This document shows positions 12,301 through 41,313 of a DNA stretch of 41,553 bases, one piece after another. How positions within the stretch are numbered: the stretch's first letter is position 1; every line of letters begins with the position of its first letter. Under the pieces are notes generated by a model, which saw nothing but the letters and a program-made list of their open reading frames with translations, was not told the DNA's origin and did no database searches. This stretch comes from Collodictyon triciliatum (taxonomy: Eukaryota). The DNA lies in the NCBI GenBank assembly GCA_043381765.1, contig JBHJMP010000118.1:1-41553 (forward strand). Direction: 5' to 3'. A program made the position numbers and the translations under genes.

Positions 12301-14089
12301 TTCTTTCCAACGAATATTTTCGTTTTTCTGCCACAAAAGTTTTCTCCTGATACAGTTATATGAGTTCCTCCACCAATACCTCCTAATGTGGGCTCAAGAT
12401 TGGTAACAAAGGGTCTGCGAGTAGGTTTCCTAGATGCTGTATGAATCTTATGTTCATATGAAACCTTTATAATATTCGTAAGAGAGGAAAAGTAATATAC
12501 AATTAATTTTAAAAGAAGTTCGATTACCACTAAAAGAATTATGTTGCATCCGAGATTTTGACTTTGATTTTGGCGAAGTTCTTGAATTTGTAGGAAGCTG
12601 TGTTTCATCAGCAAATCCAGAAGGTACTATATTTGAAGGTACATTCGAAAACATGGATTCGCCCGAGGGAGATGCAATTGGTGGGCTTTTGAGGGATGGC
12701 ATTCCAGACAGGGAACCAAGTGGTGATGATGACGGAATGGCGCTTGATGCGAATGCAGATCCACTGAATCCACTAAATGCGGCTACAGAACCAGTAAAGT
12801 AATTGGGATCAATTAGAAGTTTGCCGTATTATAAATTTTGACAATTATTAACTTCTGTCGCCTGGTTTCCATAATTTATCATAACATATTATTCATTGGT
12901 GAGAATTTGGGGAAGGAATGACAAATTAGGTTAAAAATATAAAGAAAGCTCACGAGTCGATGATATCATCGAGTTAAACGCTGAATCAGACCCTGATACA
13001 CCGATGACAGAATCACTGGGTCCAACCTCAGAAGAAGATGGAACTTCCTCACTGGGAGAAACACTAAATTGTGAAGGCTGTCCAGATGGCGATGATGAGG
13101 GTGCGATTGGAGAGGTAAATAAGATTGGACTTTTGGACACCAAAACTGACGGAGATGGTTGCAATGTGCCTGAAGCTGATGCTGGCCCTATTTGTGATAT
13201 TGAATCTGGGAAGTCAGACCCGCTTATTTGAAAACTCGGGGACTCACTCATAATTCCTGTTGTTGGTGCGACTGATGAAACTGCTATGGAACCAGATAGA
13301 ATCGGAGATTGGGCACGATTATTAAAGTCCTCGTTTTGTTCAAACAATTGCTGTTCATCAACTTCTTGGAACTCTTCTGTTGGGTTCGAATAATTCTTAT
13401 CGCTGAGATTATTCACCGTCGTATTTCCTGGTTTTAAATTTATAACATCAGCAAGTACGTCCTCGACTTCTTGAAGTTGTAACCTTGTAGTATTTTCTAT
13501 CTCTGTGGCTTTAGATGGAATTATATCACTATTTTTTTGTTCTGGGTATAGCTGTCCAAGATGAACATCGCCAGTGTTCTTGGCATCCTGAATTGAATAT
13601 GACTTCGTCGTATTATTTGAAGTTGTTAATGATGTTTTCAAGGATTTTGAATACAGTTTTTGATCAGAATGTTCTAGGATATCAGAACCATTCATATTTG
13701 TGCCTGTTGAAGGGACCTTCCCAAAAAGAGAAGTTTGCTTTGTCTTCTCATTATTCTTTTCAAAGTTTCCCATCATGACATCATACACTCTTTGTTGGAA
13801 GGCGTCTAACGCACCCTTTTCTCCGTTTCTCGAGTATGCACTGACCTGAGAATTGTATTTTGCATTTTTATTGCATACATATAGGTAGAAAATAGTGTCT
13901 TGTAAATAAAACTGCAAAGTTGGATTTTTTTTTCATTTTATTTTCTGCAAAGATGATGGATAATATCCTATACACCCAAATTTACAAAAGATTTTAGATA
14001 ATTACATCAGCCTGTGCTTTGGTGCCAGCGATACCCGATCCGAGGGTGAGAATGAGAATCACTGCCCAGAACAGAGTTTGCCCGCCCAT
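3351..14089 (-). CDS. Large multi-exon type I membrane protein: signal peptide, Ser/Pro-rich stalk, about 6-7 IPT/TIG repeats, REJ module, GPS-like motif, one TM helix, short tail (polycystin/REJ-like)
   Basis: Exon 1 MGGQTLFWAVILILTLGSGIAGTKAQAD. IPT repeats such as PTLGGIGGGTHITVSGENF, GSFGGGTNITLSG, GPTRGGTLVTIYGDN. REJ-type motifs CDDIELDGSLS...FKWEL and NKPPFRGSIKVFPTQGK|AMDTVFHIQADGWVD. GPS-like WTDSLC...IACACKELSTY, then TM VIIAVFGAAVLVSIGFIVF-RRLRK. Exons traced with GT-AG junctions from 14089 to about 6000; 3800-6000 was not fully resolved and the last exon is tentative. Confidence 0.8.
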
Positions 14090-15093
14090 CGGGATGGTGT
14101 AGCGGTGCGGTTTTTTTTCTTCTAGATCGTCCTAACCCTTCTTTCTGCCTTCTTTATTTGTTCTTAGTCCTGCCTTTGTCACCTCGATTTAGTATATCCC
14201 AAAGTACAAATAAATTCCTCAGAACCTTTTTTCTTCCATGATTAAAAAAAAGTATTGTTTATTAAATATCAATATTGCTGTTATAATCATTTGTAAATTA
14301 ATTATGAATATATGAAATATTATTCACCAGGGAACGTGAGTTGTACATACAGTATTAGTGAAACATGATACGAGATTTGATTCTGTGAAAAATGATAATA
14401 CTGGTATAAAGAAAATATGCCTATTATATGACTTCCTTACAAATCATGAAATGATCGGACTTAACTTTTATTTATACATCCCAAAAGTGTGTCCTTGCTT
14501 AGTTGTTTGAGTATGAGAATGAATGTGTTAATTGGTGATTGTGTAAAAATCGGAATTCGTCGTGAATAGGACATGCCCATGTAAGTATCCGTCAGACTGG
14601 CCACTAGACTCAGTTTGGCCATTTGAGAGAAAAATGGTATAAAATGTATTGATGCTTTTATTGTCTAATGTCTTTGAATAATTGACAAATCTATCTATTC
14701 ATGGAAATTTTGTAGTTTGTTGTGCTTCAATTTCCAGTGTAATTTTCTTGATGATAAGATAGAATTTTGAAGAAAAGCAAATTGATAAAAAAAAAAAAAT
14801 TGACAGAGATTTCTTCGAAAGTATCGATAAACTCATATCAAGAGACATTTTAGTAATTTGGTACTGAAGTTACATGCATAGACAATTCCTTGACGTCTAT
14901 TTTAAAGACATCGGTCATTTTAAAAAAAGAAAGTAAAAACGCAGTACGAATCGCATGTATAAATACATGTTTTATTATTTAATGTCGAAATAATTCGTTA
15001 GAATTACACTGGAGTCTAGTCTGTTCATAGTAATTTGAATGAATTTTAAGTCAGAGAATTTGCTGTTTTTTCTTTTTGAGCAAGACACTCTTG

Positions 15094-15662
15094 NNNNNNN
15101 NNNNNNNNNNNNNNNNNNNNNNNNNNNNNNNNNNNNNNNNNNNNNNNNNNNNNNNNNNNNNNNNNNNNNNNNNNNNNNNNNNNNNNNNNNNNNNNNNNNN
15201 NNNNNNNNNNNNNNNNNNNNNNNNNNNNNNNNNNNNNNNNNNNNNNNNNNNNNNNNNNNNNNNNNNNNNNNNNNNNNNNNNNNNNNNNNNNNNNNNNNNN
15301 NNNNNNNNNNNNNNNNNNNNNNNNNNNNNNNNNNNNNNNNNNNNNNNNNNNNNNNNNNNNNNNNNNNNNNNNNNNNNNNNNNNNNNNNNNNNNNNNNNNN
15401 NNNNNNNNNNNNNNNNNNNNNNNNNNNNNNNNNNNNNNNNNNNNNNNNNNNNNNNNNNNNNNNNNNNNNNNNNNNNNNNNNNNNNNNNNNNNNNNNNNNN
15501 NNNNNNNNNNNNNNNNNNNNNNNNNNNNNNNNNNNNNNNNNNNNNNNNNNNNNNNNNNNNNNNNNNNNNNNNNNNNNNNNNNNNNNNNNNNNNNNNNNNN
15601 NNNNNNNNNNNNNNNNNNNNNNNNNNNNNNNNNNNNNNNNNNNNNNNNNNNNNNNNNNNNNN
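15094..15662. other. Assembly gap (N run)
   Basis: Run of n; probably hides 3' exon(s) of the RA/WH2 gene. Confidence 1.
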
Positions 15663-15737
15663 ACATGAATTTAAGGGTTGTTTAGAATAAAGTGACTTGA
15701 ACTTTGTTTTAAAATTATTGTTTTAAAAAAATAATAC

Positions 15738-18700
15738 CCTTTCGTGCACTGGAAGCTCCGCTTGAAGGTGTGGATGTAACTACTGCCCCAACTTTTGCGC
15801 TAGGCGGCTCTCTTTCAGCAGGAGCAACCTAATATACGAAATAGCATTTATTTACATGTCTAAATATTCTAAGGTGATTCGTAGATCAGAGAAAAAACAC
15901 TAATATGTTGATTTATACTGTATTTTGGTGGGAATAGTTTCGAATAAATTTCGTAAATTATCTCTTTCATTCACAGATAAGATCTCGAAATGACCAATCA
16001 ATAGGATATGAAAAAAATACAAGTGTTAAAAAGTAATAATGAGACCTGTATAATACATCATAATGCAATTTTTTTTCACTGTACAAACCTTTTTTAATTG
16101 TGCACCTTGGCGAATAGACGCCAACAAAGCAGAGCGTCCATCTGAATCACCTAGTAAGATTTCATGAGTTTGTTAAACAGTAATACAAATAAAAATAGAA
16201 TCTTCAGTGATCAAGAAGAATCAAAATATTTTTATTTTGAAAGAAAGTAAAATTTTGGAGTGCATGAAGTTGATATTTGGTGAAAATACCTGAATCTTGG
16301 TCGCCTTTCTTGCTGGTCTATTTTCAGTTCACACCATAAATAAGTATTTTATGCGTCGTTTTCATATTTTTGATGAAATAGAATCATTTTAGTTGTAGAA
16401 TAAAAGAAATTGGACAGTAATGTGAGAAGAATGTATGGAAATTGTATAAAATATTAAAAGGTTGAAGAATATGCAATTACTGGAGGTGGTAGTGGTGGTC
16501 CTGATGATGCAACTGGTGCTTTGATGCCTGCACCTCCCATCGGTGGTGGCGGTGGTGGAGGTGGCGGGGCTCCTCCTGATGGCCCCATCATAGGCGGCGG
16601 TGGTGGTGGCGGTGGAGGAGGGCCGCCTGATGATGTAACTGGTGCTTTGATGCCTGCACCTCCCATCGGTGGCGGCGGGGGCGGCGGGGGCGGAGCTCCG
16701 CCTGATGACCCTACCATGGGCAGTAGTGGGGTAGCTGTTGGAAGTAGAGAGCTTGGTGGTGTGTTGAGTGTAGTTGCAGGTGGTTGATGAGTTGAACTTG
16801 GCTTGGGGTTATTCGGTGGTGTGGATGTTGATGTTGCTTGCCCCGAATTCAACTACAGATGATATTATCGTACATCATTTTATCTCTTTACACCAGAGAA
16901 TGAAGAAAGAAACCTTGTCTATAATTAATAAATTGTTTGGTTGTGAACTATAATATTTGCGCACATATGATATGGTTTATTGTATGTTTTTCTCTATTTG
17001 ATTGAAAGTGATATTTTATTGTATAGATCCTTGCATAAGAATTACTTGTCTCGCGGAACCCCCACTTTGCAACTTTGATAATAATTCAGCACGAAAATCT
17101 TTGACTGGAGCAGCTCCTACATTTTGTTTGGGAGCAGCACTTGGTGTCTCTGCAGGTCCTGTTGTTGTATTTGAAGTACTGCGAGCCTCTCCAACCTATT
17201 AAATATGATATGCATTTCTTAGATTTTGTATCAACCATGATGTATGCATATATATAGGAAAGATTGAACGTTTTGTTCTGCGTGATTGCAGAGGATCAGT
17301 CAAGGTATTAAGAAGATTCCAACAAGGTTGGTTACCTTCTTAAGGGATGCTCCACTCCTAATCGATGCGAGCAGATCAGATCTAGCATCACCCGAACTGC
17401 TATTGGATTTAGAGCTAGAGATGGCGGGTGGTGGGGGAAGGCCTCCTGATGATGCAACTGGTGCTTTGATTCCTGCTCCTCCCATTGGTGGGGGAGGTGG
17501 GGGAGGGGGAGGGCCTCCTGATGATGCAACTGGTGCTTTGATGCCAGCTCCTCCCATTGGTGGAGGAGGTGGAGGTGGGGGAGGGCCTCCTGATGATGCA
17601 ACTGGTGCTTTGATTCCTGCTCCTCCCATTGGTGGAGGAGGTGGAGGTGGCGGTGGAGGTGGCGGTGCTCCCCCCGACGATGTCGCCATTGATGGTGGTG
17701 GCGATACCACCGCTGGCGGCGGTGGTGGTGTCGGCGCGGATATTACCGGCGGCGGTGGTGGTGGTGTCGGTGTTGATGTAGATATTACTGGTGGCGGTGT
17801 TGGTGTCGGTGTTGGTGTTGGTGTTGGTGTTGGTGTTGGTGTTGGTGGCGGTGTTGGTGTCGGTGGTGTCGGCGTTGGAGTTGGTGTTGGTGTTGATTCA
17901 ATCGCTGGCGGTGGTGGTGGTGTCGGCGCGGATATTACCGGCGGCGGTGGTGGTGTCGGTGTTGGTGTACATATTACTGGTGGCGGTGGTGGCGTCGGCG
18001 TTGGTGTTGGTGTTGGTGTTGGTGTTGGTGTTGGTGTTGGTGTTGGTGTTGATACAACCGGTGGCGGTGTTGGTATCTGTGTAGATATCACTGGCGGTGT
18101 TGGTGTCGGTGTTGGTGTTGGTGTAGATATTACCGGCGGTGGTGGTGGTGTCGGTGTTGGTGTTGGTGTAGATATCACTGGTGGCGGTGGTGGTGGTGTC
18201 GGCGTTGGAGTTGGTGTAGATATAACCGGCGGTGGTGGTGGTGTAGATATAACCGGTGGCGGTGTTGGTGTCGGTGTAGATATCACTGGTGGCGGTGGTG
18301 GTGGTGTCGGCGTTGGAGTTGGTGTAGATATTACCGACGGTGGTGGTGGTGGTGTCGGCGTTGGTGTTGGTGTTGGTGTTGGTGTTGATACAACCGGTGG
18401 CGGTGGTGGCGTAGATATCACTGGTGGCGGTGTTGGTGTTGGTGTAGATATAACCGGTGGCGGTGTTGGTGTAGATATCACTGGTGGCGGTGGTGGTGTT
18501 GGCGTAGATATAACCGGTGGCGGTGTTGGTGTCGGTGTAGATATCACTGGTGGCGGTGGTGGTGGTGGTGTCGGCGTTGGAGTTGGTGTTGGTGTTGATT
18601 CAATCGGTGGCGGTGGTGGCGTAGATATCACTGGTGGCGGTGTTGGTGTCGGTGTTAGTGTTGATACAACTGGTGGCGTTAGTGTTTGTGTAGACATCAC

Positions 18701-18804
18701 CGCTGGTGTGGGTAACTTTGGTGGTGACTGTGGTGCTAGATCTGGTGGTCGTAGTATGAGAATATGCGAAAAATACAAGATATATCGTGAGCTTTGTGCT
18801 AGAC

Positions 18805-18837
<33 letters not shown>

Positions 18838-21800
18838 GATAATGATAATGATAATGATAATGATAATGATAATGATAATGATAATGATAATGATAATGAT
18901 AATGATAATGATAATGATAATGATAATGATAATGATAATGATAATGATAATGATAGTAATTAACTGATCCATAATATGAGGTGAATTATATGAACTTTAA
19001 TTAATTCAATCCTTTTTGTACTAGTTCAATAAAGTATCCAAACCAGTTAACTGAGTCCCCTCGTCACCAAGGGAGTTCAGTATGTCATCCAACTCTGTAT
19101 CGATGTTTACTCCTTCACGAGAAGGTTGGGTAACTTTGATGACAGAGGCCTCCAAGGGGTTCCGGGCAACCTTGACCACTTCAGGTGTCGGCAAAGATCC
19201 AACCGTTTCATGAATTTTTGGTTTTGTCTCATAAGTGCTCTATCGAATGATAGAACGTACGTTACCTTATGCATCGTATATTTATGTATCTGATGTATCA
19301 AAATCTTGTGTGAAAGGGAGGTTTATTGTATTATATTCGAGTAAGAAGGAAGAATATCACCAAGTTTACAAGAGGCATGTGAAATGCTCATAATATTCAA
19401 TCATTTTGTCTGTCAGGTGAATAATTCACCCTGAAACATATTGCGTGAATGAAAAAGTACCGCTTCCTCAATTTTTAATGCACTTTCCGAATTATATGTG
19501 CGCACTATCAAACGGCAGTATTCAAGAAATCACTAACAATATATGTGAATTTATGTTTGAATAACATGAGTCGATAAGATTTGCAAATTACGTGCAGGTG
19601 GATTTTGAATTGGAGAGTTGGATATCATGCTCCCTCCAACTTTAGGTGCCTGCAGTACCGAATAAGGAACATTTTTTGAATCAGAATATTGGTTATATCT
19701 CGAATTTCCCAATATAATTGAAGCCATAGAATAGACATGGGCTTCGTTACAATAGGAGAGCATATATATTTCAGCTGAGTAGCGTTTAAAGGAAAGCACA
19801 CTTGCAGAAGTTATAACATAGATTCGCTTACTTTGGGAGCTGCAAAAGATGGCGGTCTTTCGTATCCATATTTTGTCGCGACCTCATGTGGCGAATATAT
19901 TCTGACTGACTTAGACGAGCGAGCAGATGCGATGTCGTGTTTTTTGTCTTAAAGGCATTCATACATGTTAGTACAGAGCTCAAAAACGTTTTTCTATTCT
20001 TCCTTTCAGAGAGCTAAATAGCATAGACTATCTTTCGATTTGGATGATATAATATTACAGGGAAGGTACCTTGAGGAATAGGGCTGCTTGTGGGGACCAT
20101 CACCTACAGGGGTCGAGTTTGTTAAAATAACAACAATAATTCAGATTTACTCTAAATGTAAAACGATCTATATGCATCGTGAAACCCCATGGGTGAATGA
20201 ACTTTAAAATTTGTCACTAGAAATTCAAATATCATTTGGGACGTACAGATTCCATCGGCTTGTCCGAGACAAATTGTCTAAGACATGACATGCATATGTA
20301 GTTCTTCTCTGACTCTCTCCATGCTATTTGATCAGACTAAAGATAAAAAAAAAAATTCGAATTATGATAAATTTGTGACATCAATTGTATCATACAAATT
20401 TATACCGAACAGTGGGGACATTTGCTCGCAATTTTAGTCTCTGGAACGCTAGATGTCTAATGTGTTGTTGTCGATTAAATGGCTTTTCTTCTTAAAAATT
20501 AAAATAATAGACTAAGATTAAAAGAATTGCTTAAGGACAGCAATAGATCATGATTGGTAAAGACGTAAATTCATTTTAATTCTTCCTTTCAGTTTGTGCA
20601 AGGTGGTGGAGGTTTTGGAAAAGAAGTCGAATCTTAATTCTGAAACCATACCAACGGATTAGGCTTCCAGTCTCCAAACGAAGACGACTTCGACTTCGAA
20701 CCCTCTGAAATCGATCCTCGATGTGTGCCTGACCAAGCCATCCACCTCCCAGATTTTGTACGAATGGCTATATGTTTGCATATATTGTTATATCAAAGAG
20801 CACATGGTGATATCAAATGTTACTATCAATTAGGAATATGGGCATAGGTTTCTATACGTTCGATTCCTCTTTTTTTTTCAAACTAATGAAAGAATATATG
20901 ATTCATCGCAATAGTAGCTAGTGTGCTGCAGAACTCACCTTTCCTCTTTACCAGCCATAAGAATGATGAATCTGCCCCATGTTGTTGATAAATTCGATGT
21001 GGTTCATCCTCTGTCACAAGTTTTGTTTCTGTCAATCGAGAAATGAACGATTTTAGAAATATTTGTAAATCTTCTCGAAGATTAATCACTAGGTAAACTA
21101 ATACACTGGGCTATTGCCCTTCAAGCTTAGATATAAACAGTTGTTGAACGATGTCAGATTTCTGTGACGGTCAAGTAGAAAAATGAAAAATGACGGAAAA
21201 TAGACGTATAGGGTGGAATAGTTTGGATATTTCTGTTACGTTCCTCCTTTCACTTTAGAAATATTATGGACAAGAGTATAAGAAAGAATTTAAACGAACC
21301 ACTTCCTTTGACTGAATAACGCAATGAGCACTCTTCGAATGCAAGTTTCTCATGAGAACTTTTGTTTACTGAGTCACAAATGTCCTTGGTGAAACTCTGC
21401 GACAGAAGCCATGAAAAATTACAGTGGCACAGTCAGAAAATAACACATATACAAAGTAAGTTTGAACCATCAATTCGAGCAGATATGTGTAGTATATTGC
21501 AGGAGAGAGGGCAAGACATGACAAATATACTTGCATACAAGTTGTGTGGAGAATAATCCACTTTCACATTACCGAGACAGTGGTGGACGGATTAAGCCAA
21601 ACACTGACATACTCTTGCTGTGAGTTCAAGTTTTTGTCGAGGTATACTCTTGCAATCTATGAATGCAAACACGTATGTTAAATGAAGAAAATATTGGTTG
21701 AGTTAAAGTTTTGAATATTGAAATGAATCTCTTAAATCTAAAACATAATCATTTGAGGACAATTACAATAATAAATTCGGGAAAAAATTGATATGTGAAT

Positions 21801-22556: not shown

Positions 22557-25500
22557 TGAATAACAAACAACGATATCTTACGTGGTCTTTCAGCTCCAGT
22601 TTACGAATAATTTCATAATCTGGATTGCTCTGCTCGTTCCAACAAGGCAGAAGTGTGATGCCGGGAGGCGCCTTCTTGATGTTCGATTTTCCTTCTCTGT
22701 TGCGGATGCGCAAGCGACTGAGAGCAGTCAGAGCAATAATTCCGACAGGAAGCTCATCAATCTGTAGGAATGGAAATATAATTATGAGTTCAAAATAGTG
22801 GCCTGACTTTTCGACATTTATACATTTAACAAACCGAATTATCACGGATATCCAACTGTACAAGGCCCCTTAAAGAGCATAGTCCTGGTGGTAGTGATGA
22901 CAACTGATTTTGAGAGACATCAATACGAGTGAGGCCATACAAGCATGATATTTCTGGAGGTAGTGATGACAGCTGATTTTGAGAGACATCAAGGCGAGTT
23001 AGGCAATTCAGGCGTGATATTTGAGCAGGTACTGATGATATCTGTAAATCATGGTAAATGAGAAAAAAAATAGAGCTTCGAACGAAATTTCTTCAATAAT
23101 TGAAATGAGATTAAACACACTTTTTTCATAAAGGTTGGTAAATGAAAAAATAATACTGCAAACCTGATTATTTGATAAGTCCAGATACACAAGGTTTGTA
23201 AGAGTAAAGCATGGCTTCGGGAAAGATTCAACCTGAAAATGAGATGTAGGTTACAGTAAAAGTAATATTTATATGAAAAGTATGGTTGTTTTAGATGTTA
23301 TGAAATATTACTTTGTTTGAATGGACGTAGAGTTTCTTTAGCCCAACTAAATGCTTGAGCGAATCAGGAATCTGGGAGAGCTTCATATTGCCCATCCACA
23401 GCGAGGTTGCATGTTGGATTCCATGATTGTTAGGAGTGTATCGCACATTCACAAGTGGAAATTCTTCTAATTCTTCAAGGATACCAGAGCTTAATGGCTG
23501 TTTACGATGTTCAATCTCATTTGGCCGCAAATCGTCGTTAATCACTTGTGATGCAAACGAGAGTTCTTGCTCAGAAAGCGAATGGGTCGCATGGACATCA
23601 GGCTGGTCAAGCTTGGATATTATTTTTCCATCAAGCCTCAAAGCCATCACTTTCTCAAGTAATCTTTTTGACAATTCGTCTTTCTTTTTCTGCAGATGAG
23701 TCACCAATTGGCTGTAAAATAATTCCTTAACTTTTCTCTTCGTAGCTTTGGAGTTACTGGCGGCATCTTCCTCCATAGACAATTCAACGAAAGCAGAAAT
23801 GTCATCTGGTGATATGTGATACATCTCAACCATTGTGCTTTCATCCAGTTTATCTTGAATTTCTTGGAATCTTTCCCAGCCCATTTGATTTGAAATTGTA
23901 TCGCTTAGTTTTAAAAAGCCATGTTCTCGAAGCCACTCCACAAATTCGCCCTGGTTCATATCAGCCAAAGGAGTATATTTAATTGGAATCAATTCATTCA
24001 TCGTCTTTTGAGAAAGCCTTTGTTTACCTGATTCCAATTCATCCAAGTATGCACAAACTTGATTTAAAGAAGGTCGGAGCTTGTAGTTTTGCCTCCAGCA
24101 TGCCCTGATAAGATGGTTATACTCACGAGTGGCTTCTTTCGGTATTTGAGGTCGTAATCCCCTCATGACAAAACTCTGCGTTTGTGCTTCATTCTGGAAA
24201 GGATCGACGCCAGAAAACATGTACCAAACGAGCATTCCCAAGGCATACACATTACTTGGTTCTCCTCGATGGCCAATATTGACTTTTTCCTCACCATACA
24301 TGTAAGGATTATCATCATAAAACGGCTTAGATGAAAGTTCATGAATTTCCGGTGCTTGCCAATTAGCAGTTCCGTCTTGTTTGTCCTCGCCAAATTTCGT
24401 CGGTAAGCTTGACCCGACTTTATCAACTCGACGACGGCTCACTATTCCGAAATCCACAATTTTTACCGTTGTTTCGCCCGCAATCATAACGTTGTCGGCC
24501 TTCAAATCCTCGTGGTAAAGGTGTTGAGAATGCATGAAAATGAGACCCTTGCACAGTTGTTTTGTGTAAGATATAATTTGAGGCAATGTTGGTTTAATAT
24601 TTTTCTTCTCCAACATCGCTTTCAACGAAATACCTGCATTCTCCATAACCATGAAAAAGTCGTCGTCTTTGCGATACACGCCGGACAATTTGACAATATT
24701 CTCACATTCATAACATTCATGTAGAAACTTGCTCTCAAAAATGAGTGATTGAATCACCTTACTGAGGGTCTGCTCCTTGCTCTTCTGCATAGTTTGGATT
24801 TTCACCACAGCACTTTTTCCTTCGTATGTTGTTGTATAAACTCGCCCATACGACCCCTTTGCGAGATAACTCGAAAGTTCTATTTTTTCATCAATCCACT
24901 GTTTCTTCAATTCTCCGTCGATTGAATCCAGCTCAAGAGTTGCTTCAGCAGATTGCGGCGTCTTTTTCTTTTTCGCTCTCACCACAGAGTTGAATCTCCT
25001 TGATATCCCTTTTTCAAGTATTAAATCATTTACTAGTTTTCGATAATTTTTAATCAAATTATCATTAAGTTTTAAAAAACATGTATAATAATATATTGAT
25101 TGAATAAACCTTGTTCAAGATAGACGCGCCCTTGCTTTACTTCACTTGCTTCCAATTGATGGCTCTCAGTACACTCATTCAATTTAGAGTCATCTATCTT
25201 TCCCGAAGTTTTAATGTAGCCGCGTAATCCATGACGTTGACATTCTGGACATTCAAATTGGTATTCTTTCACAAAATCTTGTCGAATCGATGATATTTGT
25301 TCGATGAAGGTTAAAAGAATATCGAAAATCCTGACGAATCTATCGCCTTCATCAATTTCATTTTCATATTTTCTAACCTTGACTGAAATATTCTTCTGGC
25401 GGATTTGGTACAAAATAATCAAGTCATTTCCAGGATGAAGTTGAATTTCATCCGTTCCTGTTTTGTAGGAAGCATTCAGATGTATGAACGCTACATCTCT

Positions 25501-26714
25501 GAAAAACTGGTCGTCATACTGAACTCCAGCTTGTGCCTCTTTTGACAAACGAAGTGCTTGAATGATGAAGTTGCTTTTGTCAGAGAGCTGGACCTCACCA
25601 TTGGTCATTATTTTTACCGATGTTTCAGCGATGCAGTTTGACTCTGGTTTTTCATTCCACAAGGACTTAATATTGCTACAATCTTCCATCAGTGAGGGAA
25701 AGGCGATACATTCTTTGTTAAATTGAACCCCAAGGCCGAAATGGTCAAAGATTCGAAGAATTGTACTGAACACTTGTTCATCTAGTTCTATACTCAACTC
25801 TTGTTTTATTTGGTCTTTTAGCTTTCTCAACAAAATAATGCCATGTGTGTCCTTACTGATACCTTTGAAGCTGAAGACACAGCGATATATGTTGATGAGG
25901 AATAGGGGGTCTAAAAAGATACGATCTCTAGCACTTGTAATATCTGAGTACCAAATGATCGAACCAAGGTCGTGGAGGAAACTGAGAGCACTTTCGCAAA
26001 AGCTTTCATCCTTTCCTTGCGATATCCTGCAGAAATCTTTGACACCCTGGAGAGATTCATATGGCATTGAAGCCTTTGATTCCAGGTAACTCTTGATAGA
26101 AATGTAATCTTTAGAGACAAGCTTCATCACATTATCCAGCTGGGTCATTCCTTTGTATATCAATTCCTTCAAATCTGAAATGTGTTCTCCACTCTTATTG
26201 CTAACTTTCAATTCTGTGTTGATGAAGATGTGGTGAGCCTTTTTATTCGGTTTTTGTTCATTTATTTTTCTTGATTCTCTCAATTTCTTCATGCATCTCT
26301 TGGCTATAATTTTTAACTTCAGAATCCTGATAAGTCCCAGCGATGATGATTTTTGAACCAGGTGCAAAGTCATCAAGCATCTTAATCCACCGATCGAGGT
26401 TATTCTTCTTCTTGTCTTGGTCGAGTCTGTACAGAATTAAAACGAGGGCGCCTGATGACAAAAAGAACGGGTGTGTTACTTGGAACTCGTCTTGTCCCCC
26501 AAAGTCCCATACACGAACTGTGATTGGTTCATGCTCACCACGCACAGAAAATTCATGAATATCAACGTGTGCAATACCATCGGTTCGCTCTCGCTTCTGG
26601 TCTGTGGTGTTCTTGAAATCCTCAGATTTCTGTGAGATTGACTTTGAGAGTGTGGTTTTTCCTGTTTCACCCTCGCCAAGAAGCAATAATCTTCCTTGTG
26701 TCCAGCGCATAGAC

Positions 26715-26946
26715 CGTAAGGAGAGGATACTGGGGTCTCGAAAGACTATGATGCTTTATTGTTCTCGCTAGGAGAAAAGGGGAAAGGTAGGCACAGCCAG
26801 GCGTAGGAGGGGCCCATAAGTATGGGAGAAGACGCCTAAGTGTGGCTCATCCTTATTTAAGCCGCTTGCGTGTCTCTTCCTCGAAATTTTCCTGGTGAAC
26901 TGTGTTCCAGAAATGTATAGTCCCTTGCAAAAGGGCGTTTGTTACA
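26715..26946 (-). mobile_element. Solo LTR-like element, 232 bp, inserted in Roco coding sequence
   Basis: Minus strand starts TGTAAC and ends CCTTACG (TG...CA with the last base altered). Flanked by direct repeat TAGAC at 26710-26714 and 26947-26951 (extendable to CATAGACC). Contains TTAAATAA (TATA-like) and AATAAA about 40 nt before its end. Removing it plus one repeat restores ...FLLGLKGGS-MRWTQGRLLLLG. Confidence 0.8.
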
Positions 26947-28984
26947 TAGACCCTCCCTTGAGACCCAATAGGAAATTAATCACAGATTCTGATCCTTGTT
27001 CAATCACGTCCAGTGGTATATTAATTATTGGGTTGCCTTTAACATAGAGTCCCCTCTTCAACAGTTTCATTTCAGCCAGCTCATATGGTAACATCTCAAT
27101 CTATCATAAAAAGAGAGGGTCAAAAATCACTCGCACATAAATTTCAAGTTAATGACCGGACAATAAATGTAAAAAATAAACATCGGGATGCGGGGCAACC
27201 TGGTTGTCTCTAACATCTAGACTTTTGAGATTACTCAAGATACTGATTTGGGGTGGAATTCCTACCAACTAAAAGAAAAAATGGGTGAAAATGAATAATT
27301 TTTTTGTAAAACTTCGTCACCATTACTGATTTCAAAGTACCTTGTTCTTGGACAGATTTAAATTTTCCAAGGAACCCAACTGGAACAAGATATCTGGTAT
27401 CGACGTCAACTATTGATTCCAAGGTGAGTGTGCCGAGCGAAGGAAAAAGATAAATAGGCAAAATGATAAGATACTTTGCGATGCAAATATTTTGTTTTTT
27501 CTAGTAAAAACAAAAAAAAAACCTGATTGGAGGAGAAATCATATGCCTTTTTGTGAGGAAGAAGGATAATTTCGTTTGGTATTCTACGAAGGTTTTTTTG
27601 TGACATATGCACACCATCCTCCACAAGACTGATTGAATCCAGAAAACTTTGAACACTCTCAGCAAACTTGTTATTTTGCAGGTTGAGATATCTTAAAACC
27701 TCTAACCTCTTTAAGTCTGGAATTTCTGAAACCTACAAAAGTATACGAAAAGAATCTTATCATAGTATCATATTTTACACAAATTCGAGTCGAGTACATC
27801 AAATCCAATATGATTGAAAAGACAGAGATTGATGCTATAATACCTCATTGTGAGACGCAGATAGCTCCTGGAGTGATGGCATCTCGCCAATAAATGCTGG
27901 GATTTCACTAAGCTAAAGCCAGAAAATAAGATTTGGATGCGTAGTAAAGTAATTACATGGCTCATGTTTATCAAGCGAATATGACTAATATTTAAACCTA
28001 TTGAAGCATATGCACCTTATTATAATCGACAGTGAGCGCGCTTAGATATCTAAGATTTGAAATCCCATGAGGGAGGTACGACAAAAGATTTTGGGCTAAA
28101 TGTAATCTCTGAAGTTTGGTGATAGAGGATATGGCATCAGGTATGAACGAAAGTCTGTTACGCTTGAGATCGACTCCCACAAGATTTGTAATTCCCAATA
28201 ATCCCTCTGGGAGGGAGGAGAGTGAGTTTTCACCAAGTCGCAATTCGTCAAGCTTCTTTAAGTTACTCAAGTCTTCAGGGAGATGGTTAATTACATTTCC
28301 TTCTAGGGAGAGAACCGTCAGATTTGTTGCATTATGAATTCCGTATGGAAGTTCTGGGAGTTGGTTGTGATCCAAGAGTAACTCGACCAGCTTCGACATA
28401 ACAGACAGTGCTCTGGGAAGGGAATGGATAGAGTTATGGCTCAAGTGTAATCTTGAAAGAGAGAGAAGGGCTGACAACTCTTCTGGTAGGGAGGTAAGTT
28501 GGTTTTGATCCAAACCCAAGCTCCGTTAGCCCTGATAGGAGAGATATCTGAGGTGAAAGGAAGGACAGCCCTACATTTGTTAAGTGGAGGACAACCAAAT
28601 TTGTCATCAAGTAAAGGTCATCTGGTGCCCGAGGAATGCCGGTGTTTTCAATGATGAGGTTGTAGGCATTGCAAAAATTAAGATCGGCGGTAAGTGCATA
28701 CATATAGGCAGAAGACTCAAGAAGTCTGAGTCCAGGGCTGTTCTGGAGAAGTGTTGTGGTCCCCTTTGCTGCCATGGTGCGGCTGCTTTCTGCTCTCAAA
28801 AAATGAAATGAAACAATATACAGCATTAGGAGGGCAATCACAACAACCTGCTTTCAACCATGACCTTGATGCGCCTTGTGTACGATTCCTCCACCTTAGC
28901 CCTTTGCAACAGGTTTTTTGTTGTTGCTCTTTCTCTGTCCACTCTCTTTGGCACCGTCTCTACCTTTGCAGTGTTTGCTTTCTG

Positions 28985-34687: not shown

Positions 34688-35238
34688 ACTCTTTCTCCGC
34701 AATAATCACAAACAACATAAACCGCACACGCACACACCCACGGTTTAGTTAAACCCAAACTCTGGTCGAGTCACCGCAAGCCATTTTCGTCAACATATCT
34801 TTGGCGTGAAAGTGGAGCGGAAGTGAATGATGAAAAGTGATGGAAAAAATAGAGGGCGAAAAGGTAATAGTTGAGTAAAATGATTCTGAGTTCTTGATTT
34901 AGTTTTATTCATGCACAGGGTCAAAGCAAGTTTCTTATAAGTCTAAGAGAGATTGGAGTGAGGCTCATACAAGGGTAGTGCGTGAAAGAATTGAAAGAAG
35001 AGTGTCGTGTGTAAGTTGCAGATTGGCAGAGTTTGGCCTCTCTTCCTTTGTCTTCTTTTTATTGTTTGAGATAGGGAAGGGAGGTATTTATAAGTAGCGC
35101 AACTACATTTACATGGGGCAGCATTAAGTCCTTCTAAGGAATAACATTCACCCACAGACCAATACGACGGCCACGAAAAGAGTGGTCTATGATAATAATA
35201 TCATGCTTCTCTTAATTATACAAGCTAACTGAGCCAGC

Positions 35239-38162
35239 CTACGGGTCAAGCCAATCCCCGCTGTCATCACTCGGGACGTAGTCGCTTTCGTCAGATTGCA
35301 TTAGACTCGCTTTTCGAACCGAGAGGGCTTGCTTTAGCATGGTTGTGAATGACTTCATGAAATTGATGGACTGCCGTACGTTGTTCTGCAATTGAATAAT
35401 CACAAAAGAAAGGAAGAAAGAAGTAAAGCCACAGAGTCAGGTTGAAGTATATGAATTACAAAATCTCTCAACTAGAGTGGACACGAATGCTGGTGCTCTG
35501 TACATTCCAGCAATATCCATGTGGGGTTTAAATATTGGACGGTGTTGGACAGCCAAACCTTTCGCGGGGGTTGCTCGGCCACCTTTCGAAGAGAAATGCC
35601 CTGCCGAATCTCCTCCAAGAGCATGGCCATCGGTGCTGCGACAAAGAAGCAAGTTATGGGTGCGGCATAACAAAACTAAAACAAGGGAAACAAAAAGGGA
35701 GGCTTGTATATGTTTGATAGGCATTCGAATCAGACTGCTCTAAATGGAGCTTATATAAATGAATAAATTGCTCTTAAGTCACAGCTTATGTTAAAATATG
35801 AACAACCATAGTATGGAGAGTCTGTACATATTCAAAGGCAGTGTTACTTCTTTTCTCTTTTCTTTCTTTTTTTTTTTTAAAAAAAAAAGGTATGGAGAAT
35901 ATTTTGTATGTACGAACTTGTATCTTTTGTTTTGTTCTTTGGAGATTCGGAAATATTGACATGCTTTAGATTTCCTGCCTTTTGTCGCATTTCATTCATA
36001 AGTTGGGACTGTACATCCATCGAACCTAATTATGAGTTAAAAAATAGATACATATTTAATAAAGAAAAAGATAGATGAATAAAACAACCACATGAAAAGG
36101 ATAAAGTTAGCATCTGTAGGGAAGCAAATAAGTGATTGCTCTCTCAAAAAAACAAAAACAAAAACAAAAACAAAAACAAAACAAGAAAAAAACAAGAAAA
36201 AAAACAAGGATTTTCATTCCACAAACCTGACTTTGGTCCGTTCGCCTTGTTGGGTTCAAGATTATCATGGCGCTTCTTCAGGGCAACTGCAGCAAGGTCA
36301 GACGGCGAGAAAGGTATGCCACCAAAAGCTCTGTTATCTGCACCAGCAGAAGAAAAAGAGGGGATTTCTTTTGCAGAGGTGGGAAAAGAATGAGGAATTG
36401 GTGGCGGTGGCGGTGGCGGCGGTGGCAGTGGCAGAGAAAAGTTAGGTAGAGATGGGGGAATCACGCTGGTCTGTTTTTCATTGGGCGTGGGTGTAGATTG
36501 TGCTTCGAAAGAGAACGGGAGGGAAAGGACGGCCTTGTGTGCGTTGGATGCAAGCAGGGAAACAGGAGTAAGTGCACTGAGACCGACCCACGTGCCTGTG
36601 AGCGACTCTGGAGCCGCCTTGCCTGCCCACAGGTTAAAGTCCAGCATGCAGGCTTCCACGCGGGATGCTACGTCTGCCATGGTGCCTGCAAATGCAGCCA
36701 GATGCGGGACAAAAGCGGGCAACCCCGTTTCTGCCTGCGTCCCGCCGCGCTCCACGTCAAAGCCCGCCACGGCCTGGGTGAGGACGGTGAGCTGCGCAGA
36801 CATGGCCGATATGGACGAGTAGAGTGCCTTGAGCGTAGTCTGGACCACAGAGGACTCCTTTGCGATGCGCATCTTGTCCTTCTCGGCAAGCATCTGCGTC
36901 TGCTCCAGCTGCCTGATCTGCTTCTCGAGCTCATCCACACCGATGTTTTCGATCACGTCGGTGATTGCACGCGTGGCCATCTTTGCAGAGGCAGCATCAG
37001 GCCCGGTCTTTCCTTTCTCATTGCCTTTGTCTTTGTCTTTTGCCCTCTCCTTTGCTGCAGACGCATGACTGAAGCGGAAGCGCGGCGGCGGAGGCCCGAC
37101 GATGCCCTGGATGGAAGGCAGCGGCGCAGACAGCGAATCTGCGTCGGACGCGGCAGACCGGCTCTGCTGCTGGGCCGGATTTGAGCGGCGGGACGCTTCG
37201 TCCCAGGCGGCAGACGGCTTTCTGCGCAGGGCAGAGACGGGCTCGGCATCGGGCGGTGCCTCCGCCCCAGGGCCCCGCATCTGCTGCATCTGCTGCTCGT
37301 AGTGCTGCTGCATCTGCCGCAGACGCGACTTGTACATGCGCGTGCGCTCGCTCAGGGCGCGCTGCTGGTCGTAGACCTTCCTCTGCAGCTCGGCAACACT
37401 CCTCTCCAGGTCAAAGATTTTGCGCTCCTGCGTCAGCTTCTGCGCAAGAAACGCCTTCTGCTTCGGCTCTACACCGGGCGGGTTAGCAGCTGTTGCCGTT
37501 GCCGTTGCTGTTGCTGTTGAGAGTGATGGTGATGGTGATGGCGATGGCGATGGCGATGGCTTTGTTCGGCGTGGCTGTGCGGAGGCTGCGGCCGTGGCAT
37601 TCGGAGAATCGCTCTGCGGCTGCGACTCGAGCGAGAGGACAGCCTGCTGCAGGCGCTGGACTTCGCGGTCGTACATGTCGCACATCTTATCGTAGAGCGA
37701 CTGCAAGCGCAGATTGTCCTGGGCCACTGCATCCAGCCGCTGCCGGGCCGTCGTCGCCTGCTGCTGCAGCCCGTCCTTGTCGGCCGCGAGGATCCGGCAG
37801 TCCTGCTCGAGGCGTCGGATCTGTGCGCTCTGCTCCTGCACCTGCGACTCCAGCGCAGTGATCTTTGCAACAGGCGGCGGCGCTTTTGGCCCGGGGCTCG
37901 CGTGCCGGCCGGATTGGGCGGACGATCCGCGCGTGGCCGCCGCAGTGCCGGGTGGGCCGTGTGTGCTGCTCGGTGCCGCCGGGGCGCAGACGCGTTGTGT
38001 GCCGGGATCGGAGAGCAGCAGCTGCGACGGCGTGGGTTGCCGTCCCCGCGCAGAGGCGAGTGTCGCAGGCGCAGCCGGAGTTTCGCTTGGGCGTCGCGCT
38101 GATCGCAGCCCTTCGATTGGACGCCGCACCTGCGTCCCAGCAGAGCCGGAGCGGACAGACAT
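35239..38162 (-). CDS. Coiled-coil / polyproline / WH2-central-acidic (WCA) protein, putative Arp2/3 nucleation-promoting factor; exons 38162-36227, 35635-35559, 35385-35239
   Basis: GT-AG splicing joins ...PPPPPPPPP...FSPSDLAAVALKKRH...GPKS-APMAMLLEEIRQGISLRKVAEQPPRK-NNVRQSINFMKSFTTMLKQALSVRKASLMQSDESDYVPSDDSGDWLDP TAG. Phases 1 and 0 match exactly. Confidence 0.85.
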
Positions 38163-38471
38163 CGGGGGAGTCCTTCTTTTGTTGTGGTTTTTTTGTTTTT
38201 GTTCTTTGTTTTTGTTCTTGTTTTTATTTGTGGGTATTTGGGGTTGGGTGTGAAGAAGGCTACGGTGGCTGATTAGCGCCCGCATGCGTGTGTGTGTGCG
38301 TCTTTCCTTATCTTGTTGGGTAGGAAACTGTATATGATTACATGTATGTGTATCTGTGTGTGTGTATGGGTGTGCGTCATTCCCTTCGGTGGAAGGTCAG
38401 AAAACGTCTCTGTCTTAATCTTTCGCCCTGTTTTTCCTCTTCTTCCTCTTTTTTTTTTTTTTCCTTTTTTT

Positions 38472-38528
<57 letters not shown>

Positions 38529-38646
38529 TTGGCCAGACGACGCTGCAAGGCTACATGGGAGCGTGTATACTCCAGCCTGTTCTTGTGAGAGTGCAAAACT
38601 TGTGCGCAGGAAAAGGGCGAAGCGTCCGGCGGCATCAGCGGGTCTC

Positions 38647-38832
38647 CTAGGACTGCTTGCGGGCAGCGGCCTTCTGTGCAACCAGAGCTGCGATGCTGAA
38701 CATGCCCGATGCGCCGGCTGGTGGCTTCTTTCCTCCTGTGTCTGGGCCGCCTGGGCCGCCCAACGACCCTGCGGAGGCGCTGCTTGTCTATTGTTTAAGC
38801 AGAGAGAAAGAGAGAAAGAGAGAAAGAGAGAA

Positions 38833-38912
<80 letters not shown>

Positions 38913-41313
38913 AGGTGTTTGCAAGGTACATCAGCGCACAGATATGATAATAACTATACTGATTGTTATCATCATTGTCGCCGAATGTAACCATCGTATA
39001 TCGCAAACACCACCCGGATGTCATCACCAAGATGAATGCTTACTGCAGGAAGGAAAAATAACATAAAAATAATCAAATGAACCATCGGCGGCTTCTCGGG
39101 TGGGGGCGCAGCCTTCTTGAGCTTCTTGCCGGCCTGGATTTGCGCAAGAAGGGCGTTGCGGTTGTCGTCGGCAGGCGGGGCAGCCGATCCTGCGGCCATC
39201 GGGGCAGACGCGGCCTTCATCAGAGGTGGCGGGGGCGGCGGTGGGGCTCCACCCATCATGGGCGGGGGCGGCGGAGGCGGCGGAGCTCCACTCATCATGG
39301 GCGGCGGGGGCGGCGGGGGCGGAGCTCCTCCAGCAGAGGCAGAAGCGGCAGCCTGGCTCTCGAGCTGCTGGATGCGACTCTGCGCCTTCTCGAGCTGCTC
39401 TTCGGTGCGCTGCAGCTTTGCAAGCAGGTCGGCCGAGCCCGGTACTGAAGCCGAGGTGGACGCGGTCGAGGGCGGAGCAGCTGCGGTCGGTGTGGCTGAC
39501 TTCTGTAGTGGGCCGTTGAATGTGGTGAGTCGCATGTCACGGCATCTGCTATTGCTGCTGCTAATCCGTACAAAGCGCACGAAGCCTCATGGAGAAGATA
39601 CAAGAGAATACAACGGCTGGTAACATTTTTTTTTTTTATTTTTTACAAAAATAACTTATTCTTACCTTTTCAGCTTCGAGCTTTTTGACTTTCTCCTCCA
39701 AAACGGCCTTTTGCTATGATTTGGCACGTGCGTTTAGATCTGAGAGTTGGTCTCGATTGTGGTGTATTTAGGATACAAGCAAGGGTTTCGGTAGAGGATA
39801 AACCTGGCGTGCTTCATCGCGCTCGGCTGTGGTGGTCTTCAGGCGCTGTTGTGATGAGCACGCGTTAGTATTCTGAGCAAATATACGAACACACAAATGA
39901 CAGAACATGTGGCTGAAAGACTGCGAAATAATATTCGCGATGGTGTCAATGAAATCACACCCCTTCGGCTGAGCTCAATTGAGTGGTGGCTTCTTTCAGC
40001 TTCTGTATAGTTTTATTTTTATAATGTATGCAAAAAAAATCAATACAAGGGATAAATTTCTTTTTTTTTAAAAAAAAAATGATGGTGATGTAGGCAGCTT
40101 TACCCGGTCGGCCTCGGTGCGGGCTTCCTCATTTGATTTGGAATCCTTGTGTTCAGAAAGTAATATCAATGTGCATTTATTAAAGATTGATTGGTATATT
40201 ATGACATAAAGTGATGATCATTTGCAGATGTCATTAATGAGAGCAAAATGGACTATGATTTTTTTCCCATTATTCGATTCAAAGAAAATGGACTATGATA
40301 ATCATACTTATAATTACAGCAATACAATGTAATTTGAATACAGATGAGGAAATTGAGAATTCCAAACTGTCATGTATGAATGTCAGCAAATCTACCTGGG
40401 ATTGGCTCGCACGAAGGGATTGAACTTCAGAGTTTTTCTACATTCCCAACAAAAACATCAAAAGTATGTGGGGTAGAAAATGATAAAAGTAGAAAAGGGA
40501 GCGAATGGATGATGACTTCACTCAGAATTTGGATACATCGCCAAATAAGTCATACTAGAAGACATATAGGATTTTCAATCACTCACCTTTTCAAAATCAA
40601 GTTTTATTGCATCCAAATCCTTTGTTTTCTGTTTTTATCATATGTTAGTATATTAGTGTATGATTTTGTTTTTCTTGGGAACAATTTTGCCAAAGGGGAA
40701 AAAAACATTCGCAAATTCCAAAGGTGAAAAATGAACATACCTTTTCAAGGTCAGTCTTGAGCAGCTCCGACTTTTTGGATGACTTTGTTGGGAAGAATGT
40801 GTATTGGACGAGGAAAAATGAAAATGAAAATTGGCAATATGTTAGATAATAATACGATACTCGAATGTTAAAACGCTATTACTTGGAGTGTAATTGTACA
40901 TTTTTATTCATGTGACGATAACAAGCGCAGGTTGAAGTTTTTGAATTTACTTCATTCATTTGATCATCATAAATACCTCTGTTGCCTCACTTTTCAGCTT
41001 CGAAATTTCACCAGTAAGCTTTCGATTGAATAATAATTAATTCAGGGCCCCGTATAGGTAATCGCAATCGGAGAAACTCATCCAGTAATATTATTATTAT
41101 TTATTTAACTTTTGCAAATCGCGAATAAGAAAAACCTTCTCAACACTTTCTTGACTTTGAGATAGCTCCTTCTTTTTCTAAAAAAAATAATAATGATTAA
41201 ATCAGTAGGAAGAAGGAAACACAACTATAAAAAAAAAAAAAGCTTCATAAAGTTGAAGCTCAAGGTTTTACATTTTCTATCTCAGATCGCAGAGACTCTA
41301 ACTCGCGCTTGGA
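38647..41313 (-). CDS. Coiled-coil / polyproline / WH2 protein, 5' end outside the window; ten micro-exons followed by exons 39502-39083 and 38787-38647
   Basis: Heptad-patterned micro-exons, then [12 protein letters not shown] repeats, WH2 [18 protein letters not shown], and a terminal exon ending [22 protein letters not shown]. Confidence 0.85.
38801..38909. repeat. (GA)n / (GAGAAAGA)n intronic microsatellite
   Basis: Directly visible. Confidence 0.95.

Follow-up and report, generated by a model that had tools for sequence, protein, structure and literature searches.

The stretch of DNA analysed here, referred to as the window, comprises the 41,553 nucleotides of contig JBHJMP010000118.1 from Collodictyon triciliatum, and its element of interest is a candidate gene on the minus strand, which by open reading frame (ORF) and translation of the window has its ATG at 38162 and its stop at 35241-35239. 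The locus is best read from its sequence as one five-part gene, of which four coding exons were found, with a predicted product of about 755 residues. On the best reading of its motifs, this protein would carry the features of a class I nucleation-promoting factor (NPF) while fitting no named subfamily of the WASP family. The coding exons are as follows.

36227..38162, minus strand: exon 1, 645 codons plus 1 base, with a disordered N-terminus, helical modules and a polyPro tract; donor AGTCAG/gtttgt
35918..36025, minus strand: exon 2, 108 nt, phase 1-1, splice signals ag/GT..AA/gt, encoding SMDVQSQLMNEMRQKAGNLKHV...
35559..35635, minus strand: exon 3, the WH2 exon, encoding PMAMLLEEIRQGISLRKVAEQPPRK
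35239..35385, minus strand: exon 4, C helix and acidic Trp tail, encoding NNVRQSINFMKSFTTMLKQALSVRKASLMQSDESDYVPSDDSGDWLDP, then stop

All exon borders are GT..AG with compatible phases, neither a stop nor a frameshift is present, and the reading frame is open with or without exon 2, giving 755 or 719 residues, respectively. A preliminary description of the locus had proposed that two small exons, at 35635-35559 and 35385-35239, add a WH2 motif, an amphipathic helix and an acidic tail with Trp, preceded by a polyPro tract. The corresponding peptides were found at these positions, with GT..AG borders and fitting phases, and the polyPro tract was located in exon 1 and is conserved in a homologue from Diphylleia rotans. 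The exon set was incomplete, however, as the further exon of 108 nt at 36025-35918, with a second WH2-like motif, had been missed. The features of the tail, whose WH2, C helix and acidic end are together termed WCA, are listed below.

36399..36431, minus strand: polyPro tract, residues 578-588 of exon 1 (proline-rich stretch 576-590), aligned with the Diphylleia polyPro tract
36270..36311, minus strand: WH2-like remnant FSPSDLAAVALKKR, conserved in position and aligning with MLGV..LQDLGSVQLRPT of the Diphylleia homologue
35958-36002, minus strand: WH2-like motif LMNEMRQKAGNLKHV of exon 2, matching the loose WH2 pattern
35580-35621, minus strand: canonical WH2 LLEEIRQGISLRKV in exon 3, matching both Pfam and the strict pattern
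35299..35385, minus strand: C amphipathic helix, F-x3-L-x3-L-x-V-R-K-x-x-L, first part of exon 4
35239..35298, minus strand: acidic tail SDESDYVPSDDSGDWLDP with Trp four residues from the end, then stop, second part of exon 4

The features of a class I NPF, namely a proline-rich region, at least one WH2, a C helix and an acidic C-terminus with Trp, are all present. Patterns for the WH2 and C domains were taken from the sections of Kollmar 2012 (PMC3298513) drawn on here. The strict WH2 pattern gave four matches in the six-frame translation of the window, where 100 block shuffles averaged 0.01; one is the exon 3 motif, which at 24.0 bits passes the curated cut-off of 23.1 for Pfam PF02205, and the remaining three lie in two neighbouring genes. 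The peptide FSPSDLAAVALKK of exon 1, previously put forward as a degenerate second WH2, does hold a conserved position but does not conform to a WH2 pattern, with neither the strict nor the loose form fitting FSPSDLAAVALKKR. The linkers of the WH2 motifs are 4 and 5 residues long. In exon 4, FTTMLKQALSVRKASLM agrees with the description of the C domain, having three large hydrophobic residues spaced by three, a basic doublet and a closing hydrophobic residue. This pattern is unspecific when used alone (47 matches in the window, shuffle mean 28), and the assignment of the C helix gains weight because of its position and its 73% identity to the Diphylleia homologue. The GDWLDP end is invariant between the two proteins and aligns with the DWL end of WAVE1 (3p8c_D).

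The homologue was found by a phmmer search with the N-terminal 577 residues against 1,835,955,588 cluster representatives, which returned a single protein at E <=0.001 (P0005, E 1e-72). By exact look-up, P0005 is a complete ORF of 960 residues, encoded by a Diphylleia rotans Trinity transcript in EukProt. BLASTP aligned exon 1 with it at 34% identity over 527 columns (E 6e-77), and the exon 1 start codon is backed by residues 1-38, which align with the beginning of the complete ORF from Diphylleia (17/38 identical). Behind its polyPro tract, P0005 carries a WH2-like remnant, LQSKLMSEMLAKGNQLRSV, MGMLLEEIRQGVQLRKI, a C helix and SDESDYASSGDSGDWLDPADE, in the same order as the window gene. Identity to P0005 is 64% for exon 3 (residues 885-909, E 1e-9) and 73% for exon 4 (E 9e-25), while the exon 2 peptide reached a Smith-Waterman score of 56 against residues 848-878, a score attained by none of 2000 shuffles. 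Ten stop-free peptides of at least 20 residues lie between exons 1 and 3, and exon 2 is the only one to align, the other nine scoring no higher than 27; the score of the global alignment to P0005 was 1114 with exon 2 and 1049 without it. All four exons are thereby collinear with one complete Diphylleia transcript ORF. As P0005 derives from RNA, one message combining a helical N-terminus with a WWCA tail exists, at least in Diphylleia rotans, and it is mainly because this transcript carries both parts that exon 1 was joined to the tail exons. At 73%, conservation of the C helix and GDWLDP tail exceeds that of the N-terminus (34-39%), which argues for selection on the Arp2/3-binding part.

Wider searches were carried out with both parts of the protein. 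The three homologous-protein searches were confined to proteins whose length was about 0.55-1.75 times that of the query. A profile search with alignment A1 gave zero matches and missed even P0005; its list of 8000 candidates was probably overrun by low-complexity words, making the result uninformative. Residues 575-745 of P0005 as query retrieved only themselves among 2443 candidates, as did residues 845-960 among 97 candidates. Scanning of metagenome contigs with alignment A1 produced 121 pattern matches and zero relatives, and scanning with the tail alignment produced 191 pattern matches, of which two loci (L001 and L002) passed tblastn. Both were rejected, lying on densely coded, prokaryote-like contigs with a chance VRQSINFM word in an ORF that has neither a WH2 nor an acidic Trp tail. 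As far as these sequence comparisons reach, the family is one of two known members, the window protein and the Diphylleia rotans transcript, and its distribution is narrow. The suggestion in the preliminary description that the gene represents a possibly undescribed NPF subfamily is supported, as far as these searches go; the single N-terminal homologue shares the architecture, tail included. Such a family was likewise undescribed in the literature searched (Diphylleia, protist NPFs and WCA proteins), with PMC10330494 yielding just an item in its list of references, to which it should be added that the additional files and database of Kollmar 2012 may hold unclassified WCA proteins.

Parts of the locus were also present, at 1-3% divergence, among contigs of runs X1 and X2, which were compared with the window over 35100-38300 and whose nature as RNA was only guessed; run X3 contained nothing from the locus. 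One X2 contig covers 35155-35385 and resumes at 35559-35593, and the 173 bases skipped are bounded by CT..AC on the plus strand, equivalent to GT..AG on the minus strand. As this contig skips exactly the predicted 173-nt intron, the join of exons 3 and 4 was seen directly, and these two tail exons occur in a transcript-like contig spliced as predicted. Contigs of X1 and X2 together span 36562-37482 of exon 1 with 1-3% differences. No X1 or X2 contig covers 35636-36400 or 37483-38300, leaving the exon 1-2 and exon 2-3 joins and the 5' end unseen. In two contigs, loose letters at the gene-upstream end resemble an adaptor from template-switch cDNA synthesis, a feature that would be in keeping with minus-strand transcripts. 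Between window and contigs there are 10 coding differences, comprising 5 synonymous changes and 5 replacements, all in linkers or loops, a placement that is a weak sign of constraint.

Ahead of the polyPro tract, the N-terminal part of exon 1 shows the following conserved features.

38118..38162, minus strand: N-terminal motif M-x-x-R-S-x-S-x-G-T-x-x-R-R-P, residues 1-15, within the BLASTP segment 1-38 against P0005 1-32
37626..37874, minus strand: helix 1, residues 97-179, AlphaFold2 predicted local distance difference test (pLDDT) score about 90, conserved with P0005 225-305
37278..37466, minus strand: helix 2, residues 233-295, AlphaFold2 pLDDT 83-91, the best conserved N-terminal block, with a long invariant run
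37053..37091, minus strand: short motif PPPRF[RK]FSxASAA, residues 358-370, invariant from P358 to A370, in a disordered linker (pLDDT below 50)
36525..36995, minus strand: three-helix bundle module, residues 390-546, 39% identical to P0005

None of these modules corresponded to a recognised WASP-family domain. For exon 1, the matches from Pfam hmmscan (E up to 1) were just weak, sub-cut-off coiled-coil ones, and for P0005 (E up to 10; best 25 of 26 families) they were only coiled-coil noise and WH2; WH1, PBD/CRIB, WAHD, WHAMM/JMY and IMD were not among the Pfam matches listed for either. We know of no Pfam model for the SCAR homology domain. The peptide IVGPPPPRFRFSH was considered as a CRIB motif and rejected, as Pfam PBD was unmatched and P0005 does not conserve the His; the PPPRF[RK]FSxASAA motif is accordingly not a CRIB. 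No CxxC motif occurs in exon 1, whose four Cys residues lie far apart. PDB sequence searches with P0005, its tail and a two-sequence profile aligned only the WH2/VCA part, to N-WASP and WAVE1. The best match of the P0005 tail was the N-WASP WH2 construct 3m3n_W (E 8.5e-6), and the P0005 VCA aligned end to end with that of WAVE1 (3p8c_D, E 0.039). The WAVE1 chains 3p8c_D, 7usc_C and 4n78_D include the N-terminal region, yet they align only by the VCA. The view in the preliminary description that the N-terminus lacks a recognised WASP-family domain is thereby upheld; its characterisation as low-complexity sequence with coiled coil was too narrow, as three helical modules are conserved with Diphylleia rotans.

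Structure prediction for exon 1 was run with AlphaFold2 on the two-sequence alignment, and residues 1-93, 181-232, 298-387, 551-579 and 590-645 were predicted to be disordered (pLDDT below 50). Residues 390-546 modelled alone formed a three-helix bundle (mean pLDDT 80, predicted template modelling score 0.58), whose top fold neighbours were spectrin repeats, with one of plectin in first place (Z 12.0, root mean square deviation 2.2, 105 residues), a level that is generic for helical bundles. Many unrelated bundles stood near the top of the best 50 rows of the VIA-align fold search, with no WASP-family chain among those rows, a result that excludes nothing. Foldseek at E <=0.001 gave zero matches for both the whole exon 1 model and the bundle module, and the top scores in the ESM Atlas (0.89) were to generic coiled-coil clusters only. 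Two copies of residues 95-182 were modelled as a parallel, in-register coiled coil, with a score of 0.51 (best of 3 controls 0.02), 100% contact agreement between runs and a partner pLDDT of at least 89. The mark applied to such dimer models was reached, for microbes, by 21 of 30 solved same-chain pairs and 0 of 23 solved single chains and, for eukaryotes, by 17 of 29 pairs and 0 of 30 single chains, but by just 1 of the 7 lacking an older solved relative. The model supports, but does not show, that residues 97-179 form a homodimer.

Given this combination of parts, it is fairly probable that the protein is a dimeric class I NPF, belonging to the functional class of the WASP family, with its own set of N-terminal modules and representing an undescribed, narrowly distributed subfamily. 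In the mechanism proposed, the long conserved helix 97-179 would form the parallel homodimer that was modelled. From the established roles of such motifs, the polyPro tract would recruit profilin-actin, the WH2 motifs of exons 2 and 3 would bind and hand over actin monomers, and the C helix and acidic Trp tail of exon 4 would bind and activate the Arp2/3 complex. A single Arp2/3 complex has two CA sites, and the dimer could then offer a CA tail to each of them, an arrangement that strongly raises potency in known NPFs. Helix 2, the three-helix bundle and the two conserved short linker motifs would be likely sites of targeting or regulation.

As set out in the sections of Kollmar 2012 (PMC3298513) drawn on here, WASP-family proteins are classified by their N-termini: WASP by WH1 and a GTPase-binding domain (GBD), WAVE by the SCAR homology domain (SHD), WASH by WAHD1, WHAMM, placed in Metazoa only, by WMD and a coiled coil, WAWH by a GBD without WH1 (with two N-terminal CxxC motifs and a long coiled coil in type II, from amoebae) and WAML by an N-terminal IMD. 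Compared with WAWH type II, as described there, the window protein shares a WASP-like tail without WH1 and a long coiled coil ahead of the polyPro tract, but has neither a PBD/CRIB match nor CxxC. It differs from WASH in having no listed WAHD family and in its WH2 linkers of 4 and 5 residues, as against about ten (same source), and from WAML in that the IMD family is unlisted by Pfam for both the window protein and P0005. Tandem WH2 motifs with linkers of 4-5 residues are shared with N-WASP, whereas the WH1, basic region and GBD of the latter are missing. The closest in architecture is WHAMM/JMY, an analogy already drawn in the preliminary description and borne out by parts that are arranged alike: an N-terminal region is followed by long coiled-coil helices, polyPro, at least two WH2, C and an acidic tail containing an aromatic residue, and the GTPase-binding domain is absent in both. 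This likeness is architectural only, as the helices of the window protein have no detectable sequence relation to those of WHAMM/JMY and Pfam lists that family for neither protein. SCAR/WAVE shares a helical N-terminus, polyPro and a VCA that aligns end to end in WAVE1, but in the window protein the first helix comes only after about 95 disordered residues, the WH2-like motifs number two, and the modelled homodimer stands against the heteromeric bundle of SCAR/WAVE. No similarity was found between the WAVE1 N-terminal region and the window family, within the reach of a two-member profile and of a fold search to which long helices are indistinguishable.

These likenesses bear on the alternative that the protein is a strongly diverged orthologue of SCAR/WAVE, WASH or WHAMM/JMY whose helical N-terminus has drifted past recognition, which we consider unlikely. 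WAVE1 provides the sole end-to-end VCA alignment in the PDB, and the N-termini of SCAR and WASH are helices that build multi-subunit bundles; their domains begin at the N-terminus, however, whereas the first 95 residues here are disordered. Pfam lists none of the families of these groups for either protein, the WAVE1 chains with their N-terminal region align by the VCA alone, and there are two WH2-like motifs rather than one. WH2 linkers of 4-5 residues are of the WASP/WAVE/WHAMM type in the cited sections of Kollmar 2012 (PMC3298513), although the same source finds WHAMM only in Metazoa.

A second alternative, somewhat less likely again, is that the protein is a tandem-WH2 nucleator or monomer-sequestering scaffold that acts independently of Arp2/3 (compare JMY, Spire and Cordon-bleu), with the CA-like tail serving another partner. 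Two to three WH2-like motifs do stand in a row behind the polyPro tract, Spire WH2 chains were among the weak PDB matches (E 0.63-3.2), and the modelled dimer would double the number of WH2 motifs. However, it is the C helix and acidic Trp tail (73%), and not the WH2 motifs, that are most conserved between the species, and just one WH2 is canonical. That two genes were wrongly joined, or that the locus is a decaying copy, with exon 1 a separate coiled-coil gene and the tail exons on another transcript, is very improbable, for although zero contigs bridge exon 1 to the tail exons and both cDNA-like contigs begin inside exons, a single complete Diphylleia transcript ORF has both parts in the same order and spacing, and the frames are all open and compatible, with no stops or frameshifts.

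Several observations nevertheless count against the reading of the gene as a dimeric class I NPF with its own N-terminus. For exon 2, BLASTP of the peptide against P0005 did not recover the alignment, Pfam WH2 is unmatched, the strict pattern is broken at 3 positions, and the GC content of 36% is below that of the other exons and intron-like. The exon 1-2 and exon 2-3 joins are predicted from frame, splice signals and homology only, the identity of X1 and X2 as RNA is a guess, and the joined form of exons 3 and 4 may also exist as DNA. On a comparison of only two sequences, the N-terminus may be remotely homologous to the helical N-termini of SCAR or WASH. A dimer model of a coiled coil can pass simply because generic coiled coils are familiar to the predictor, the alignment was unused in the present one, and binding and activation of Arp2/3 are inferred from motifs.

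A more far-reaching form of the preferred reading is possible but doubtful, namely that the family forms a WASP-family subgroup in its own right, restricted to the Diphylleia lineage and its surroundings (CRuMs), with a constitutive coiled-coil dimer, a three-helix regulatory module and tandem WH2 motifs that would nucleate actin alone as well as activating Arp2/3, and that exon shuffling attached its tail to a coiled-coil gene of older date in an independent assembly of an NPF. A tail gained in this way would fit the distribution of the WCA over small exons of its own, of which one is symmetric (phase 1-1).

WASP-family proteins are classified and regulated via their N-termini, and new N-termini have pointed to new sites and signals for branched actin, with WASH leading to endosomes and WHAMM/JMY to the endoplasmic reticulum, Golgi and autophagosomes. 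In a little-studied, deep-branching protist lineage, a WCA protein that is conserved, apparently expressed and built on an unrelated helical N-terminus would provide a data point on re-use of the WCA cassette, as well as a compact, probably dimeric (modelled) NPF for biochemical comparison. Judged from sequence, what is new is the N-terminal module set, which is undescribed, and what is known is the class I NPF tail. The gain is moderate, because the distribution is narrow and because further lineage-specific subfamilies were already expected in the sections of Kollmar 2012 (PMC3298513) drawn on here.

In composition, the GC content of exon 1 is 63%, rising to as much as 75% in the first 300 nt, and GC at third codon positions reaches 0.92. 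The coding exons are GC-rich, with the exception of exon 2, and the introns and spacers are AT-rich (25-40% GC), so that a strong compositional contrast between exon 1 on the one hand and exon 2 and the introns on the other is seen within one gene (35918-38162). Microsatellite-like coding repeats (SPSPSP and TATATA runs) were noted in exon 1, with a repeat region at 37483-37568. In the 3' untranslated region (UTR), at 35134-35199, X2 contigs have a 3-base insertion behind 35199, and the sequence of the loose X2 end at 35155 apparently corresponds to the window some 100 bases farther downstream. Either an indel between strains or a UTR intron lacking clean GT..AG ends could account for this discrepancy.

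Between the candidate gene and its upstream neighbour, at 38400-38930, lie long poly(A) and (GA)n tracts. The upstream neighbour (about 38650-41313, minus strand) has around a dozen small coiled-coil exons, three polyPro runs, a short basic C-terminus and a strict WH2 at 39110-39151 (Pfam 31.8 bits), without an acidic Trp tail. It was considered as a paralogue and rejected, as only low-complexity matches to P0005 were found. A further gene, at about 15700-18985 on the minus strand, runs into an N gap at about 15092-15662 and encodes a long Pro/Thr repeat with five polyPro-MGGAGIKAPV units, strict WH2 motifs at 17333-17374 and 16086-16127 and the WH2-like DFRAELLSKLQSGG. By its sequence it is actin-regulator-like and could be verprolin/WIP-like or WASP-like. 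All four strict WH2 matches are on the minus strand, in three genes within 23 kb (16086-39151), a region that may be a local cluster of WH2 genes. Also on the minus strand are a Roco-type kinase gene at 23291-28525, with leucine-rich repeats, Roc GTPase, COR-A and protein kinase in order, a gene with IPT/TIG domains at 10683-12626 and a GTP cyclohydrolase I exon at 2070-2669 (136.5 bits).

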